Below are positions 2,346-62,990 of a stretch of 64,000 nt of DNA, piece by piece. The stretch comes from a virus. Under the pieces are notes generated by a model. That model ran no database searches, was not told where the DNA came from, and saw only the letters and a program-made list of their open reading frames with translations. Location: positions 32,833-96,832 of the IMG/VR virus record IMGVR_UViG_3300008107_000029; one strand, 5' to 3'. Position numbers and translations under genes: made by a program. Position 1 is the stretch's first letter, and every line of letters starts with the position of its first letter.

Positions 2346-3047
2346 CTATCTATATTCTTTTCTATTCCACCATAGATTTTTATATCTATTGACGAAAGAT
2401 GTGTTGTGCTTATTAAGCATTGTTTGTTGATAACCTCTGCTTTCATCTACTGAGTACTCAGCAGTAAACGAATCTCTTTTAAATGGCACAACGTGACATA
2501 TTGGAGTTCCGTAAGGGATTACACCAGCGAAATCTTTTCTGATGTGAAAAGGAAAGTTAATGACTAAAGGAAATCTGTCAGTGTCTACAAACCCTGGAAT
2601 GATCTTAAATGGAAGATCTTCACGATGTGGTGGTTGAAAAAACATTGTACTGTAACCATCTGGGGTAGTAATTCTCCAAGGATTAATAAACTTTAAAACA
2701 GTATCTTCATAACCATACGGCACTGGATATCCAATTACCTGATCGTCTGTATGTCCCTCTACTGCTTTAGTGTCGTAATCCATAGACCAGGAAACATCTA
2801 CGTTACCATGCCCATCTCTTTTAACCAAGATGTCCGTCCATGTTTTTATTACATAGCCAGTAGACAATGAATCCAAAATAGGAACACATTTTTTCATAGT
2901 AGCGTTCATTCCATCAAACTTACCACCGATGTAAGTATCCATAGACTTATACCAATCTGGAAGGTTCTTATTGGCAGGCTCTGGTTTTGGTGCAGCCTCA
3001 GACAACAGTGGATCAATTAAAGAAAATTGTATTTTTTTACTTGACAT
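2346..3047 (-). CDS. conserved beta-rich phage protein (DUF6065-like / dUTPase-like fold, uncertain); paralog of 24456..25211
   Basis: P.PA...LPDWYK, KKCVPILD...GY, PW.ITTP.GYS..F..P, G.VDTD, GTP...V.PFKR motifs shared with 24456..25211. Confidence 0.65.
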   Translation of the reverse strand: MSSKKIQFSLIDPLLSEAAPKPEPANKNLPDWYKSMDTYIGGKFDGMNATMKKCVPILDSLSTGYVIKTWTDILVKRDGHGNVDVSWSMDYDTKAVEGHTDDQVIGYPVPYGYEDTVLKFINPWRITTPDGYSTMFFQPPHREDLPFKIIPGFVDTDRFPLVINFPFHIRKDFAGVIPYGTPICHVVPFKRDSFTAEYSVDESRGYQQTMLNKHNTSFVNRYKNLWWNRKEYR

Positions 3048-18064: not shown

Positions 18065-21022
18065 TTATGCACCCAACCACCATGAGTTGGTTAGTGATCC
18101 TACTGATGCTGCACCTGCTGTTTGAACTTCAAAGACAATTCTATCACTGTCGTCATCATAAACTGCCACAAGGTTTACGTGATTATCGTGTACTAAAGAA
18201 GGTGCTACAAGGTCTGTAACCACTTCTGTTTGGGTATTTCCAATTGGAGTGTATCCAAGAGCAGATGTTATATCTAATAATCCTACAGTTACGTTACCAT
18301 TGACTGCTGGTCTAGTTCCAAACTGAATTAAGTCTACTGAATCTGGAACACTAAGAAGAAGTTGGTTTGGACCATCATCATATGTGACTGTAACGTTTGT
18401 ATGGTTAGTATGATTTAGTAATGGTTCAACCCAATCTTGAATTTCTTCTTGTGTTTTTGGTGTTGGAATCTTAATTTGTATCTGTGGTAATCCAGTAATT
18501 GGATCCTCTGCTACATAATCTACTACAACGTTTTCATGATTAACGTGGTCCAGTGTGTCATAAATGAATGCTGATGTTTGTAATCCATTAAATGCAACTG
18601 GGATTGTAAGTTCAATATCTCCGTGTGCTGATTGAGTGATTGTTGCTGTACCTTCAACATCTCCATCAATGGTAAATGTAACTTCGGCATCTCTTACGGC
18701 AAGAGTTCCAGTGTTGGTAAGGTCATCGTATACAAAGTTTAATCCAAATAGATTTAATTGTCCATCTAAGAAGTTAAAGATTTCATCATCTACTGCTTCT
18801 TGAAAATCTGTAATGTCAGTTGATACGTGGTCGTGTCCTAAGTATGTTAAAGCCTTCCATACAGTTCCACTCTTTATATACAAGTCTCCAGAGTCTGCTA
18901 CATATCCAAAAGCACCAGAGTCTGCACCAGTTGGTAATGCTGCTTGATTTGCATACCCTTGAGTAACAATATTTTCTATAGCAAACAAAACTGGGTCTGA
19001 AGATATGTTGGTTGGTCCACCTAGATAAAAATAATTTTCTTGTAAACTTGGAGCAATTTCTACCTGCCCAGGTCCATACAAATATATGGCTCCATCAAAT
19101 GTTGCTATAGCACTTGATAGTTTAACAAGAATTCCCATTCTCTGTGTAACAAAGTTATATTGTTGTGGGCTTATTGACGGAACTCCGTTTAGCCCAACGT
19201 ATAGTTCTGATCCTACAACTGCACCAGTAATTTCAAAGGTGGATGCTGCTATTAATCCTTGGCTTGTTATGTATCCATTACTTGATGCTGGAATGGTTTC
19301 TTCTGCTATTCCTATTGATGGCATTGTTGATGGAGTTCCAGCACTTGCTAAAACAACATTTGGTACAGTCGATCCACTAGCATATCCACTAATACTAACA
19401 AAACTGCCTGCGTTAATATCGGTAGTGCCGTTATTTCTAACATAAATTTTTGTCTTTGGTGCAAAGTTAACCTCAGCCTGGTAGATTAATGGGTCTCCAG
19501 CAGTTGTTGGCAAAGCCATTGCTGAAGTTATAGATGGATGGGAGGGTGTTCCAAAATAAGAAGAAACTCTACTGTCAACTCTTGGGTTGGTATACCATAA
19601 ATTTGTTGCTGTTCCAGTTTCTGATACATCGTCTGTGTCAAGAACTACTGTACCAATAAAACCATTTACTGAGTCTACTTGGCTAAGAACTTTATATGTA
19701 TCTCCACCGTCTAAACTCCAAGCAAATTGCTGGTTTGCTTCGCTCCAAGCAAGGATTGCATTAGTAAGATCTCCTCTTGCAACTTCAATACCTGACTTTA
19801 AAGTACTTGCTGGAGTGCCAGTTTGTGCTGAGTTAATAAGAATAGTTGTATCTTCTGTTGTAATAGTTCCTGCATTAAATATAGTTTCAGTACCAAGTAC
19901 ACTTAAGTTACCAGTTACTGTTAAATTATTTGGAATGGTTACATCTGTTGCCAAGCCTACAGTGGTAATTCCATTTGTTGTAGTTGCTACTATTTGATTT
20001 GTAGTTCCATTGATTGCTAACACACCAGTGTTAGAAATTGTTAATCCGTTAGTTGCTGAATCGTATGTGGTTGATATACCAGTCTTTGTTGCTCCATTAA
20101 TTAACGCCCCTGCAGAATCTTTTGCACGGTCATCTGTAAACCATAGGTTTGTTGTTGCTGGATCTCCGTCATTGCCTTCAGCAATATCTCCAGTTGTTAT
20201 AGTTACAACTCCTGTTTCGCCATTAACGCTTAGAACATTACCAGCACCAGTCAAAACTATTCTGTTGTTTACGTCATCGTATGATGCTGTAACATTTGTA
20301 TGTCCAGCATGGTTAAGAAGTGGTGCAGCAGAATCCTGTACTGCTTCAGTAAAGTCTGTTACTTGAGTAGAAGGAATTGCAATGTCGACATTTGATGCAC
20401 TTGTAATACGACCATCAACATCTACTGCAAATTGTGATACTGAGTTAGCATCTCCGTATGTTGCTGGTGTAACTCCAGTGTCTGAAAGATCAATAGTAAT
20501 TGTGGTATTACCAAGATTGGTCATTGTTGCTGATCCAGTTGCATCTCCTGCAATACTAATTACTGGATCGTTAACATTAAATGTTAATGTATTTAAGATG
20601 TCGTCATATGATACTGTTAGACCAGAATGTGTGGCTGCTACAACCATAGCCTGTGCAGCATCCTGTACAGCCTCTGTAAAGTCTGTTATGTTGGTAGATA
20701 CGTGGTTGTGTGAGTTATCTGCAACTGTTGTTGTAATGGTTGCGTTAGCAAGGTTTGTTACTGTTCCAGTTCCACTTACATCACCATCTAGGGTTAATGT
20801 AAAGTCACCTACATTGAAGTTTAATTTTCCAGTTGTATCGTCATAAGTAACGTCAATACCAGATTCGGTATTTGTAGTTACCATAGCACCAACTAGGTCT
20901 TGAATATCTTCTGCAACGTTTGTAATATCTGTAACTGTGTGCGTGTGCGATGGATACGCTAACGCCACATCTACTTGAACGACATCATTTGTTCCTTCGT
21001 CTACTATTACATTAATTGCCAT
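18065..21022 (-). CDS. tail fibre protein
   Basis: 985 aa; repeated DF.EAVQD / H.N.TVTYDD units, GDVSGTG, V.SVNG.TG.V motifs. Confidence 0.78.
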   Translation of the reverse strand: MAINVIVDEGTNDVVQVDVALAYPSHTHTVTDITNVAEDIQDLVGAMVTTNTESGIDVTYDDTTGKLNFNVGDFTLTLDGDVSGTGTVTNLANATITTTVADNSHNHVSTNITDFTEAVQDAAQAMVVAATHSGLTVSYDDILNTLTFNVNDPVISIAGDATGSATMTNLGNTTITIDLSDTGVTPATYGDANSVSQFAVDVDGRITSASNVDIAIPSTQVTDFTEAVQDSAAPLLNHAGHTNVTASYDDVNNRIVLTGAGNVLSVNGETGVVTITTGDIAEGNDGDPATTNLWFTDDRAKDSAGALINGATKTGISTTYDSATNGLTISNTGVLAINGTTNQIVATTTNGITTVGLATDVTIPNNLTVTGNLSVLGTETIFNAGTITTEDTTILINSAQTGTPASTLKSGIEVARGDLTNAILAWSEANQQFAWSLDGGDTYKVLSQVDSVNGFIGTVVLDTDDVSETGTATNLWYTNPRVDSRVSSYFGTPSHPSITSAMALPTTAGDPLIYQAEVNFAPKTKIYVRNNGTTDINAGSFVSISGYASGSTVPNVVLASAGTPSTMPSIGIAEETIPASSNGYITSQGLIAASTFEITGAVVGSELYVGLNGVPSISPQQYNFVTQRMGILVKLSSAIATFDGAIYLYGPGQVEIAPSLQENYFYLGGPTNISSDPVLFAIENIVTQGYANQAALPTGADSGAFGYVADSGDLYIKSGTVWKALTYLGHDHVSTDITDFQEAVDDEIFNFLDGQLNLFGLNFVYDDLTNTGTLAVRDAEVTFTIDGDVEGTATITQSAHGDIELTIPVAFNGLQTSAFIYDTLDHVNHENVVVDYVAEDPITGLPQIQIKIPTPKTQEEIQDWVEPLLNHTNHTNVTVTYDDGPNQLLLSVPDSVDLIQFGTRPAVNGNVTVGLLDITSALGYTPIGNTQTEVVTDLVAPSLVHDNHVNLVAVYDDDSDRIVFEVQTAGAASVGSLTNSWWLGA

Positions 21023-23243: not shown

Positions 23244-23281
23244 AATAACCTCCTAAGTTATAGTTATATTATACCTACTAG

Positions 23282-23355
23282 CGATACTAAGGGGACTTGA
23301 ACCCCTGACCTCCACCGTGACAGGGTGGCGTTCTAACCAACTGAACTATAGTACC
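23282..23355 (-). tRNA. tRNA-Asp (GTC), CCA not encoded
   Basis: GGTACTA-TAGTTCAGTTGGTTAGAAC-G-CCACC-CTGTCAC-GGTGG-AGGTC-AGGGGTTCAAGTCCCCT-TAGTATC-G; complete cloverleaf. Confidence 0.95.
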
Positions 23356-23651
23356 TTGCTACGATTATATGTTCTCATCCTGTGACAGTTAGAACATACT
23401 ATTTCGCACTTTGCTATTTCTTCTAACAACACTTCCATAGGAGTTGCTGTCTTAACCATCTCAGAAATGTTAGCAACCTTATCTCTAAGATGATCAAAAT
23501 CTAAAACTGGTGGTGGGTAGTCAACGTTGCAATCAACACACGTTGGGTGATCTAGTTTGTATTGCCAGACAAACTTTCTTCTTTTATTTTTTCTTTGCTC
23601 ATTTCGGTCAACATAAATATCTTTTGACTTAATGTATTTAAGTTCTGGCAT
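23346..23651 (-). CDS. HNH endonuclease family protein
   Basis: CVDC...LDFDH...EIAKCEIVCSNCHRMRT. Confidence 0.88.
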   Translation of the reverse strand: MPELKYIKSKDIYVDRNEQRKNKRRKFVWQYKLDHPTCVDCNVDYPPPVLDFDHLRDKVANISEMVKTATPMEVLLEEIAKCEIVCSNCHRMRTYNRSKVL

Positions 23652-23733: not shown

Positions 23734-24312
23734 TTACTTCTTGGCTGCTGGCTTTGCTGCTTTTGGCTTTGGTGGTAGTTTAACTGCTAGTGCAGCACCC
23801 TCTTCACCAACATAGTTAGGACGACCCCAACCAACTACACCATTGATCAACTTCTTCTTGTTGTCTTTAACATATGCACGAGTCTTCTCTACGCACATGC
23901 CACCATTTCGCTGATCTCCTTTTGCAGTTCCTGAAGTGTTTCCTTCAACAACTTGGATTGTTCCGTCGCCATTATTTTTTACACAGATACCTACGTGAGA
24001 TGTTCTGTTGACGCCATCTTCTGGAAAATCAAAATAGATGATATCTCCTGGAGTTGGATCGTCATTACGTGCATCTGCCCAACGATTCATTTTCTTAAAT
24101 GCAGCCTCTCCTGCAGGGGTGTATACGGTATTAGGTACCTTTACTCCTGCTTGGTTAGCACACCACATAACAAATGAACCACACCATGGTTGAAAGTTTG
24201 CTTTTGTAAACTTACCATACTTTGTTTCATTATCTTTTGGACCCTCAATGGTTCCAACTTCAGCAAGTGCTACTTCTACAATTCTTGCTGCTGATCCTTG
24301 TACTGCTGCCAT
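23734..24312 (-). CDS. CHAP-domain endolysin (amidase/peptidase)
   Basis: PWCGSFVMWC, PGDIIYF, SHVGI, VEGNT; basic K/A/P tail; AAGGAG SD. Confidence 0.88.
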   Translation of the reverse strand: MAAVQGSAARIVEVALAEVGTIEGPKDNETKYGKFTKANFQPWCGSFVMWCANQAGVKVPNTVYTPAGEAAFKKMNRWADARNDDPTPGDIIYFDFPEDGVNRTSHVGICVKNNGDGTIQVVEGNTSGTAKGDQRNGGMCVEKTRAYVKDNKKKLINGVVGWGRPNYVGEEGAALAVKLPPKPKAAKPAAKK

Positions 24313-24333
24313 TCTATCTCCTTTTATTTTATA

Positions 24334-24443
24334 GACTGGTGCGAGGTCCTTTTGACCTGCGTCGAATGGGGAAAGCGTTATGCTGTCTCACCTGCTCTAT
24401 GGTATGGTAACTATTCATCCTAAGATAAAGCCTCACACCAGCC
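24334..24443 (-). ncRNA. candidate 110-nt structured RNA / endolysin leader, family unassigned
   Basis: 5' GGCTGGTGTGAGG pairs with 3' CCTCGCACCAGTC (13 bp, 2 G-U); starts exactly 7 nt after TGATATAAT. Confidence 0.7.
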
Positions 24444-24449
24444 TTGATT

Positions 24450-24458
24450 ATTATATCA
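24450..24458 (-). promoter_or_regulatory. extended -10 promoter of the structured RNA
   Basis: TGATATAAT; the TGA is also the stop of 24456..25211. Confidence 0.7.
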
Positions 24459-25211
24459 CTTATAGGATTTTGGAACACGGTAGTGTCTACCGTAAGAACT
24501 TACAATCTTTCTAAGCAATCTTTCTAGCCTTATTTGTTGTTCTACTTCAGGGATGTGAGTGATTTCCATTTCCCACTCATCCCTTTTAAATGGTATTACT
24601 TGAACTATTGGAGTCCCTGCCTCAATAATTCCTTCAAAATCTTTTTGAATAATGAATGGTGGATTCACATCTGTTTCTAACTTATCAGTGTCAACAACAC
24701 CTGCAATTGTTTTAAAAGGTAGGGAGTTGTAGCCAACTGGATGGATAAACAAAGTTGAGTATCCTGGTGGCGTCTTTATAATCCAATGCCCACTCCATTT
24801 GTATACTTGATCTGAATATCCTTCGGGAATGTCATACCCCTTAAATTGATCAGTGCTCCATCTGGTTACTGGGTTGATTGAAGAGGCAAAGAATGCTTCT
24901 TGAGTAGTATTGTTTCTATTGGCACCATCTCTATATGCAAATTCTATATCGCAATGAGACTTAATAATATATCCAGCAGTTAATCCATCTAAGATTGGTA
25001 AGCATCTTTTTAATCCAACATTTGGAACTCCATTGCCAGAAGACTCACCATTCTTACCATCTCTTCTGTAAGCCTGCATGCTAAATTTATCTTCACCCCA
25101 TAAATAATGTGGAAGATCTTTCCACCATTGTGGGATCATTTTAGAAGCAGGTTCTGGCTGTGGAAAAGCCTGAGTTACTGGAGTTCTAGATTCAAATATA
25201 ATTTTTGGCAC
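24456..25211 (-). CDS. conserved beta-rich phage protein; paralog of 2346..3047
   Basis: PEPA...PQWWK, KRCLPILD...GY, W.IKTPPGYS..F.HP, GVVDTD, GTP..QVIPFKR. Confidence 0.7.
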   Translation of the reverse strand: MPKIIFESRTPVTQAFPQPEPASKMIPQWWKDLPHYLWGEDKFSMQAYRRDGKNGESSGNGVPNVGLKRCLPILDGLTAGYIIKSHCDIEFAYRDGANRNNTTQEAFFASSINPVTRWSTDQFKGYDIPEGYSDQVYKWSGHWIIKTPPGYSTLFIHPVGYNSLPFKTIAGVVDTDKLETDVNPPFIIQKDFEGIIEAGTPIVQVIPFKRDEWEMEITHIPEVEQQIRLERLLRKIVSSYGRHYRVPKSYK

Positions 25212-25232: not shown

Positions 25233-25241
25233 ATTATAACA
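25233..25241 (-). promoter_or_regulatory. extended -10 promoter
   Basis: TGTTATAAT just downstream of the terminator, upstream of GTG 25211. Confidence 0.55.
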
Positions 25242-25242
25242 T

Positions 25243-25272
25243 AAAGGGGATGGGCTGTAAAGCCCACCCCCT
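25243..25272 (-). terminator. intrinsic terminator
   Basis: GGGGTGGGCT-TTAC-AGCCCATCCCC followed by TTT(ATGTT) after 25287..26309. Confidence 0.8.
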
Positions 25273-25286
25273 CTAATATTAAAGGA

Positions 25287-30084: not shown

Positions 30085-30133
30085 CCTTTTCTCCTAGATG
30101 CCATAAGAATGACATACAAGTTAATTATACAAT

Positions 30134-30172
30134 AAATAGGATAGTGAGTTCAGAAAACCCACTACCCTATTT
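30134..30172 (-). terminator. long hairpin, probable terminator after the M23 gene
   Basis: AATAGGGTAGTGGGTT-TTCTG-AACTCACTATCCTATT then TATTG. Confidence 0.7.
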
Positions 30173-30182
30173 TGTTAATTGA

Positions 30183-30581
30183 TTAAGATGCAAGAATTGC
30201 TGCAGGATCAATATCCTGTCCAGCACTCCATTTAATATTTGATCTCATTTCAAAGTGAAGATGAGGACCAGAAGAATTTCCTGTATTCCCAGATTTTCCT
30301 ATGACCTGTCCTTTCTTTACTGTAGCACCAGGCTTGACATCTGCTGCAGATAGATGAGCATAAATTACCCAACCACCTGAAACTTTTTGTACTAATTGTG
30401 TACCATAACTGGCTCCCCAGTTAGCATTTTCAATCTTTCCATCTGCTACTGCAACAATTGGTGTTCCTCCTGGAACTGCAAAATCCACACCTGTGTGGTA
30501 GCCTTTGCTCCACATCTTACCAAGTTTCTTGTAAGGTGTAGTAATTTTGCCATTTGTAATTGGTAGACCCAAAGTGAGCAC
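30183..30581 (-). CDS. M23 family peptidase
   Basis: HTGVDF, YAHL, GNSSGPHLHFE. Confidence 0.92.
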   Translation of the reverse strand: MLTLGLPITNGKITTPYKKLGKMWSKGYHTGVDFAVPGGTPIVAVADGKIENANWGASYGTQLVQKVSGGWVIYAHLSAADVKPGATVKKGQVIGKSGNTGNSSGPHLHFEMRSNIKWSAGQDIDPAAILAS

Positions 30582-62260: not shown

Positions 62261-62294
62261 GGAAGGGGGCACGGTTGTTACCGTGCCCCTCTCC
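62261..62294 (-). terminator. intrinsic terminator after major tail gene
   Basis: GGAGAGGGGCACGGT-AACA-ACCGTGCCCCCTTCC then TTATT. Confidence 0.85.
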
Positions 62295-62315
62295 AAACTT
62301 ATATTAAGTTGTAAA

Positions 62316-62990
62316 TCAGGCGTAAACTCTGTCTACGACCTTACCGAACAAGTCCTTAGAACTTGTATCTGTTGAGTTATGTGTTAGTAGTCTGAATGAG
62401 ACTGGGAAGACTGTTGCTTCGTTTCTACGTACTCCTACTGTTGTAGTTTCCATAGAGACTGCACGATATCCCCAATAAATTCTTTCTGCTTTTCCATTTG
62501 TTGTTGCTGCTGCCACTGAATCTGGTGCTGGACCGACTGCGACGATGGTACGCTCAATCGGAGCATATCCAAGGGCACCTGCGTTAACGTCCAACTTACG
62601 TGATTTAGTAGTAGAGTTAATTGCTGAACCTAGATCTGAGTCTGCACCTGATGTTGCTAGAAGCAAGTTCTCTAGTGTAGCCTCTGCTAGCGATGTAGCA
62701 AGGGTCACTCTCATAGACTGCTTGAAGATCTTTGCAACTTCGAGAAGTTGATCAACTTCGATTTCGCCGTAGTCTGGTTCGAATGACAATTCAATACCTT
62801 CTTGTGTAAAACCAACGTTACGGAATGCTCCGTTTGAGTTGGTGTAAGCGTTAATCTTAGTTGCTGCTGATTGTGATGGTGCTGTGTCAGATGTAAACAC
62901 TGACTCGTACTCAACTACTGAGTTCTCATTCTCTGAGACCCAAAATTCTGCTGCTCCTACGATAATATTTTTTGCATTACCTGTTGCCAT
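62316..62990 (-). CDS. major tail (tube) protein
   Basis: NIIVGAA, VGFT.EG.E..F.P.Y.EI.VDQ, LAEATLENL, FPV.FRLL; AGGAGGT SD; own terminator. Confidence 0.85.
   Translation of the reverse strand: MATGNAKNIIVGAAEFWVSENENSVVEYESVFTSDTAPSQSAATKINAYTNSNGAFRNVGFTQEGIELSFEPDYGEIEVDQLLEVAKIFKQSMRVTLATSLAEATLENLLLATSGADSDLGSAINSTTKSRKLDVNAGALGYAPIERTIVAVGPAPDSVAAATTNGKAERIYWGYRAVSMETTTVGVRRNEATVFPVSFRLLTHNSTDTSSKDLFGKVVDRVYA

Follow-up and report, generated by a model that had tools for sequence, protein, structure and literature searches.

Directly ahead of the endolysin gene of a virus held in IMG/VR (source record of 96.8 kb, mean GC 38.8%) lies a GC-rich stretch of 110 nt whose two ends can pair with each other. 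The question raised by this locus is what such a stretch represents: an RNA gene in its own right, a leader that governs production of the lysis enzyme, or a piece of DNA lodged between a promoter and its gene. The original prediction, made from the letters of the DNA, described a structured RNA with its own promoter, which might be a small RNA standing alone or a leader controlling lysis. The window analyzed here is the whole 64,000-nt stretch of the record in which the element lies; the element was compared with the complete record, with loci carrying relatives of the neighboring genes, with sister strains and with genomes of candidate hosts.

Locus, Likely Host and Promoter

The features of the locus and their positions are collected in Table 1. 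RNA reading through from the DUF6065-like gene would run across the 110-nt element on its way to the endolysin gene. The DUF6065-like family itself is represented by two paralogs in related 100-kb phages.

Table 1. Minus-strand features of the endolysin locus, with the WhiB-like gene of the same phage (positions refer to the window unless marked).
Feature	Position	Strand	Basis or remark
Secreted 340-aa protein gene	5' of the DUF6065-like gene	-	Own terminator at 25233-25275 (hairpin 25242-25275)
DUF6065-like gene (phrog_7084)	24456-25211	-	Own promoter; upstream neighbor of the element
49-codon open frame	24329-24478	-	GTG at 24478; crosses the whole element; overlaps the upstream gene; probably not a gene
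UCCU in last codons of the upstream gene	24464-24467	-	Predicted to pair with SD AGGA, in read-through RNA only
Extended -10 promoter TGATATAAT	24450-24458	-	Sequence; motif common in relatives
GC-rich folded element, 110 nt	24334-24443	-	Insert in the endolysin 5' UTR
Closing helix, 5' arm GGCTGGTGTGAGG	24443-24431 (with A24444: 24431-24444)	-	Sequence, fold
Best-supported internal hairpin	24414-24429 (element positions 15-30)	-	In MFE and centroid folds
Element position C67	24377	-	Probably U in one near-identical strain (ACG to ATG); in a predicted loop
Alternative hairpin AGGUC-AAAAG-GACCU	24344-24358	-	Sequence; absent from the MFE fold
Closing helix, 3' arm CCTCGCACCAGTC	24346-24334 (with U24333: 24333-24346)	-	Sequence, fold
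Shine-Dalgarno (SD) AAGGAG of the endolysin	24318-24323	-	Within the 21-nt A/U-rich unpaired spacer
CHAP endolysin gene, 192 aa	23734-24312	-	ATG at 24312; Pfam CHAP 6.6e-12
HNH-like ORF	23346-23651	-	Consensus promoter ahead; 3' of the endolysin gene
tRNA-Asp	23281-23355	-	Downstream of the HNH-like ORF; thioredoxin gene follows
WhiB-like gene	1564-1737 (= G000:C1:34396-34569)	-	43.6 bits, above the Pfam cut-off

An actinobacterial host is indicated because the phage carries a WhiB-like gene, the usual marker for actinobacterial phages (PMC6802176). The closest cultured relatives of the endolysin belong to Streptomyces and Actinomyces phages (~30–35% identity), and lake metagenomes are the source of hundreds of further relatives; a blastn comparison of the 1.6-kb region with cultured phages gave no match. 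On account of the WhiB gene, the Streptomyces and Actinomyces phage relatives and the lake origin of the metagenome relatives, the host is likely a freshwater low-GC actinobacterium of the acI type.

The extended -10 motif occurs ahead of many genes of the phage. At this locus it has no usable -35, and the TGA inside TGATATAAT doubles as the stop codon of the DUF6065-like gene. The transcription start predicted from a spacing of 6–7 nt after the motif is A24444 or G24443. In a collection of 80 loci with endolysin relatives (68–88% amino acid identity in the best segment), TGnTAnAAT lies 25–60 nt ahead of the endolysin ATG in 50, most commonly at ~29 nt, and most of the remaining 30 have close variants of the motif. 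Since these relatives carry it so widely, the extended -10 belongs to the conserved expression unit of the endolysin, and the promoter that had been credited to the RNA is that of the endolysin.

The promoter–ATG distance of 137 nt is made up here of six bases, the 110-nt element and the 21-nt A/U-rich spacer, the last of which can be aligned with the corresponding bases in L008 and L009–L014. Most relatives have a 20–30 nt unstructured leader before the endolysin, whereas a few others have a hairpin at the start of the leader (-20.7 kcal/mol in L019; small ones in L009–L014 and L027). Between 24300 and 24460 no terminator-like site was reported and no U run is present. As the promoter is conserved in relatives and no terminator precedes the endolysin, the most suitable description of the element is that of an insert within the 5' UTR of the endolysin rather than a separate small RNA gene. 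Of the two forms that the original prediction had allowed, the leader is therefore retained (conserved promoter, no terminator, SD predicted to be free), whereas the stand-alone RNA is not (no terminator, no Rfam family, no distant homolog). The "lysis-controlling" role attached to the leader is unproven. Endolysin alleles of 87–88% identity differ at the N-terminus, as does the allele P0126, and those with readable DNA have a short, element-free leader.

Several other features were observed at and beyond these promoters. Small RNA genes are concentrated at the endolysin junction, which is a hot spot for them: in many relatives the TGnTATAAT promoter of the endolysin is preceded, at a distance of a few bases, by the end of a tRNA gene, at seven loci for tRNA-Asn (L030, positions 2860-3004; L035, L047, L051, L070, L077, and L081) and at three for tRNA-Thr (L010, L012, and L014), and at L030 a compact pseudoknot-like motif of ~28 nt, GAGTCCTAGGCATGACTAAAACTGCC, stands ahead of the tRNA. 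The same short pseudoknot-like motif (consensus ~ACCTRRGYATGTYTTTAAACTGCYC) is found ~30–80 nt upstream of the endolysin ATG, within the leader in L042, L049, L058, L064, L075, L083, and L087 and just before the promoter in L017, L044, L063, and L080. To the left of the window, G000:C1:19204-23514 (+) contains early promoters in which a conserved upstream box, AAAATGTCAGNCCCCYC or AAAATGTCGCAGGA, abuts TGnTATAAT; two of these boxed promoters, at 19204 and 19312, flank a stretch that can form a hairpin, their spacing being ~108 nt.

Fold, Stability and Search for a Family

The description of the element as GC-richer than its surroundings is confirmed by its GC content of 0.50 vs. a genome mean of 0.388 (top 1.6% among 110-nt windows). 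Its arms, GGCTGGTGTGAGG and CCTCGCACCAGTC, form the 13-bp end helix that had been described (8 G-C, 3 A-U, and 2 G-U pairs), which the pair A24444-U24333 lengthens to 14 bp; both wobble positions are indeed G-U on the minus strand and would be C-A mismatches on the plus strand. The helix starts shortly after TGATATAAT, as had been noted, its first G being the seventh base past the motif. Also present is the competing hairpin AGGTC-AAAAG-GACCT, read at 24358-24344, which overlaps, and competes with, the three innermost pairs of that end helix. The sequence contains neither the U-tract whose absence had been remarked upon nor any other terminator-like site, and AAGGAG and the CHAP ATG come next as stated, the ATG lying 21 nt from the end of the element.

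Within the closing helix the internal helices are weak, just three short ones being retained in the centroid fold. The best-supported internal hairpin contains the internal AUG of a 29-codon frame. A nine-base perfect complement links UUACCAUAC in the element (24402-24417) with GUAUGGUAA (24205-24220), which represents endolysin codons 31–33 in the conserved KYGKF region; this match is at the level of chance repeats.

RNAfold gives -37.6 kcal/mol for the 110 nt (z = -3.49 vs. dinucleotide shuffles; -2.37 for the opposite strand). As the earlier reader had fitted the boundaries to the helix, the element was ranked against every genome window: among all 110-nt windows of the 96.8-kb genome its GC-regressed z is -2.3 (top 1.5%), and 95 genome regions are equally extreme in GC-corrected folding energy. 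The total stability of the fold is unremarkable. The closing helix was considered in a census of uninterrupted helices no shorter than 13 bp, containing two G-U pairs at most and with arms no more than 150 nt apart. The genome holds 14 such helices, three of which have at least 8 G-C pairs, namely two terminator hairpins and the closing helix, the sole long-range one. Eight genomes shuffled in 200-nt blocks contain on average 8.25 helices by the same criteria, and none of the eight has a helix with at least 8 G-C pairs. Since no helix so rich in G+C arose in the shuffled genomes, the closing helix is beyond chance.

Some stable folds were noted elsewhere in the genome. The region 30121-30240 (-) of the window, just upstream of the start of a PA14 surface-protein gene, is among the most stable 110-nt windows (GC-corrected z ~ -4.7) and may be a structured leader. 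Very stable folds at 62261-62370 of the window (z ~ -4.5) and at G000:C1:1433-1552 (-) (z ~ -5.6), the latter a 19-bp hairpin, are probably terminators.

The earlier statement that no known family can be assigned agrees with the Rfam searches. Rfam 15, run over the whole window at gathering score, returned only tRNA-Asp at 23282-23355; at E ≤10 the region 24200-24600 gave two chance matches, off the element or on the opposite strand, and the c-di-AMP ydaO/yuaA riboswitch (RF00379) was absent among the E ≤10 matches. ARAGORN, with default and relaxed settings (introns, lower thresholds, mitochondrial and tmRNA modes), detected nothing tRNA- or tmRNA-like in the element.

Homologs were sought with blastn, nhmmer and R1, a single-sequence covariance model built from the element and its MFE structure. 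In the window the element itself is the sole match. No homolog was detected by the three methods in the 80 endolysin-relative loci, in the loci that surround relatives of the upstream gene (6 viral and 80 from metagenomes) or in five complete records of related phages (55–111 kb). Scans of IMG/VR with exact and degenerate arm patterns and with a 23-mer yielded nothing, or chance matches in contigs of 60–74% GC, and an arm-pattern scan of GTDB gave, among the matches listed, chance ones only, in unrelated and mostly high-GC genomes. The collection of homologs from related phages, proposed at the outset as a check, thus produced none beyond near-identical strains (~170 loci, five records), and hence no covariation.

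An origin in the host was addressed with an order of actinobacterial genomes of 1.1–1.6 Mb, reached via a sampled class search; this order, that of G289, we take to be acI/Nanopelagicales, and loci sampled from it have 44–47% GC. BLAST on 401 genomes of the class Actinomycetes and on 401 genomes of this order, together with R1 on 151 genomes of the order, gave short matches in protein-coding genes only (LarA, one orthologous gene sharing a 19-mer, and a 383-aa gene), which we take as chance. No conclusion draws on G272, an unpublished genome in the class sample. Six-frame translations were also compared with all loci and with the rest of the phage, where no related protein that would make the element a gene remnant was seen. 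By these sequence comparisons there is no evidence of a conserved RNA family, and the element should not count as a new one.

Sister Strains and Mosaic Endolysin Alleles

The presence of the element in sister strains is read indirectly, from the protein gene calls P0123 and P0133. P0123, a member of the 90% endolysin cluster, is an identical endolysin with a 22-residue N-terminal extension which, apart from its first codon, is the in-frame translation of the last 66 nt of the element. The substitution C67U is inferred in that strain because the codon ACG of the window is there the start codon (ATG). The first 42 residues of the extended P0123, used as a query, found no match. P0133 is a 54-aa gene call in a sister strain, matched by phmmer with the 49-codon frame; from DIIIK to its stop the call matches the window in all 42 residues, which cover the -10 and the whole 110-nt element, and the residues before DIIIK are an off-frame reading of the final codons of P0002, an allele of the upstream DUF6065-like gene with 80% identity. 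The divergence of this P0002-cluster allele reaches within ~15 nt of the shared promoter. The calls were assigned to common records by the equal nucleotide totals of their contigs, which pairs P0133 with P0136 (83,804 nt), P0139 with P0121, the endolysin of the window (98,621 nt), and P0141 with P0123 (97,824 nt).

Promoter, element and endolysin travel as a single module among the sister strains, since they are essentially unchanged where the adjacent upstream gene has diverged by 20%. The 192-aa endolysin is likewise 100% identical, so this conservation reflects a recently shared module and is not evidence of selection on the RNA. Endolysin alleles of 87–88% identity with readable DNA have a short leader from which the element is absent, and because relatives and alleles manage with a short unstructured leader, the element is dispensable for the endolysin.

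The gene call P0126 has the body of the window's endolysin from about residue 20 to the end, joined to another type of N-terminus. This arrangement suggests a recombination junction within the first codons (near codon 15–20) and, further, that the leader and the first ~15 codons constitute an exchangeable allele. The mosaic character of the endolysin alleles is also seen in P0131, the same protein minus 37 internal residues, on a 72-kb contig.

Candidate Roles of the Leader Insert

The explanation we prefer, to which we give about an even chance, is that of a lineage-restricted, self-contained folded domain in the endolysin 5' leader, which would protect or insulate the mRNA while the SD is kept free. 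Transcription would begin at the first paired base, with the result that the 5' end of the mRNA would be buried in the helix. In an actinobacterial host, RNase E or RNase J would then be hindered in the kind of decay that depends on access to the 5' end. The domain would close on itself, leaving the A/U-rich spacer and the SD single-stranded, so that ribosome entry would stay open and the insert would be tolerated. Stem-loops at the 5' terminus stabilize a number of mRNAs, including Escherichia coli ompA, Bacillus subtilis aprE and ermC, and leaders of phage SP82.

In the own-promoter transcript the closing helix would begin at nucleotide 1 or 2, and the SD has a predicted unpaired probability of 0.93. 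Deletion of the element leaves the predicted pairing of the flanking RNA unchanged, and scrambling of one arm alters pairing; in these folding models the insert acts as a closed module without effect on the surrounding pairing, and this may account for its being tolerated. Protection of the 5' end is, with modest confidence, the most likely function. Against it, the fold is poorly defined in its interior and the folding energy is only in the top 1.5% of genome windows; moreover, a plain hairpin would suffice for 5' protection, which leaves the 84-nt interior unaccounted for.

A neutral insertion or recombination scar, that is, foreign MITE-like DNA harmless to the leader because it folds on itself, is rather unlikely in our judgment. 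Such an origin would fit the restriction of the element to one phage species, its absence from the 87–88% identical endolysin alleles, its GC content of 50% in a genome of 38.8%, its terminal inverted repeat (14-bp arms, 12 of the 14 pairs Watson-Crick as DNA) and P0126, whose shared body and different N-terminus hint at a junction near codon 15–20; the surroundings of the endolysin are, in addition, a mosaic hot spot with tRNA genes, HNH genes and varied junctions. However, the element is single-copy in the phage and lacks a target-site duplication (flanks AATCA and ATAAA), no copy occurs in the ~170 related loci, the five phage records or the 401 acI-type genomes, and the arm-pattern scans gave, among the matches listed, chance ones only, in high-GC DNA. 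Both arm mismatches, furthermore, are G-U on the transcribed strand.

Improbable, with or without the sensing of a ligand or protein, is a lysis timer of the T4 gene e type, in which read-through RNA would be silenced by pairing of the SD and AUG and own-promoter RNA would be translated. The SD and the AUG would find their partners in UCCU and UUCCA, which lie immediately 5' of the -10, and the 110-nt domain would keep the two sides near to each other. A precedent exists in T4 genes e, soc, and 49 (PMC3014915), and the same source describes control of translation by leader RNA structure for e, soc, 49, and I-TevI (PMC3014915; McPheeters et al. 1986 therein). The SD core is predicted to be unpaired with a probability of 0.93 in own-promoter RNA vs. 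0.10 in read-through RNA, where a CCA near UCCU is also predicted to pair with UGG at the endolysin start codon; occlusion of this kind appears with only 2% of upstream sequences when they are shuffled and 5% when they are drawn at random from the genome, and it is relieved (SD to 0.54) when one arm of the closing helix is scrambled. Yet the pairing amounts to 4+3 bp, rich in A/U and G-U, and the isolated duplex is no better than shuffled controls. Occlusion is equal with the element deleted (0.11), and the element is therefore unneeded. The bases opposite the SD serve as upstream-gene codons, for which a sister allele has UCU instead of UCC, and in 40 relatives own-promoter and read-through RNA do not differ consistently (means 0.64 vs. 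0.52), with a marked drop for the SD in just 8 of these 40 distinct sequences; the test was, besides, post hoc.

A somewhat smaller chance still is given to a stand-alone or processed small RNA, cut at the base of the helix (for instance by RNase III, E, or P) and acting in trans, as do the stable RNAs other than tRNAs that come from the T4 tRNA region. Stable RNAs and their precursors typically have a long helix between their 5' and 3' ends, RNA genes typically stand out as GC-rich islands where the genome is AT-rich, the 3' arm includes ACCA, and many relatives have tRNA genes at the equivalent spot before the endolysin promoter. These resemblances are set against the lack of a terminator, the absence of any tRNA- or tmRNA-like match under relaxed ARAGORN settings and of a T-arm-like motif, the absence of an Rfam match in the element at E ≤10, and the fact that the element is conserved in no relative.

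It is very doubtful that the element is the first member of a new, rapidly evolving class of leader RNAs that act as sensors or bind a protein in phages of freshwater acI Actinobacteria, setting endolysin output and lysis timing, with the 84-nt interior as the sensing part and the 14-bp helix coupling it to the 5' end. The expression platform of a riboswitch or attenuator was not found: there is no terminator, and both the MFE fold and the ensemble of the own-promoter transcript leave the SD unpaired. Least probable of all is a small basic peptide translated from the 29-codon frame (internal AUG 24418) or the 49-codon frame (GTG 24478), with possible coupling of translation to the endolysin, for although the frame is open throughout the element, stops at 24329-24331, four bases before the endolysin SD, and was annotated by a gene caller in a sister strain (P0133, 42 identical residues), its start varies (ATG five codons farther upstream in P0133, GTG alone here), it has no SD, its internal AUG directly abuts AGG and lies within a helix of the fold, the residue identity says nothing further given that the entire module is identical, phmmer against 1.84 billion representatives found besides the sister frame one low-complexity repeat protein, and the exact frame of the window is no called gene in a collection of 15 billion proteins.

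The value of this analysis is mainly corrective, the supposed RNA gene being the endolysin promoter together with a strain-restricted leader insert. If, as under the preferred reading of a 5'-terminal protective fold, the helix protects or tunes the mRNA, natural lysis-gene alleles with and without a folded leader would offer a clean comparison system. In it, the influence of 5' structure on lysis-enzyme dose could be followed in phages that infect the most abundant bacteria of fresh water.

Comparison with known systems places the element among features that have been described before. The Correia elements of Neisseria and the ERIC/IRU repeats of enterobacteria are transcribed MITE-type repeats that fold into mRNA hairpins; the element is like them in its size class (~100–150 bp), its terminal inverted repeats, its location between a promoter and a gene and its co-transcription as a long hairpin, but they are multi-copy with target-site duplications, whereas it is single-copy and without such a duplication. 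With T4 gene e it shares a lysis gene whose own-promoter RNA would exclude an upstream strand that pairs with the SD; here, in contrast, the predicted pairing is weak, made of upstream codons, not common to relatives and independent of the element. The c-di-AMP ydaO/yuaA riboswitch is also a structured leader with a terminal helix ahead of an actinobacterial cell-wall hydrolase gene, from which the element differs by having no RF00379 match, no expression platform and no conservation. The 5'-terminal stabilizers of ompA, aprE, ermC, and SP82 are alike in that the helix begins no more than two bases from the 5' end (in this case, the predicted one), in the leader, upstream of a free SD and without a terminator; they are simple hairpins of 10–40 nt, whereas the element is a 14-bp helix around an 84-nt interior. 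Confined to one phage species, the element is a fresh case of a familiar kind of feature rather than a new class of RNA.
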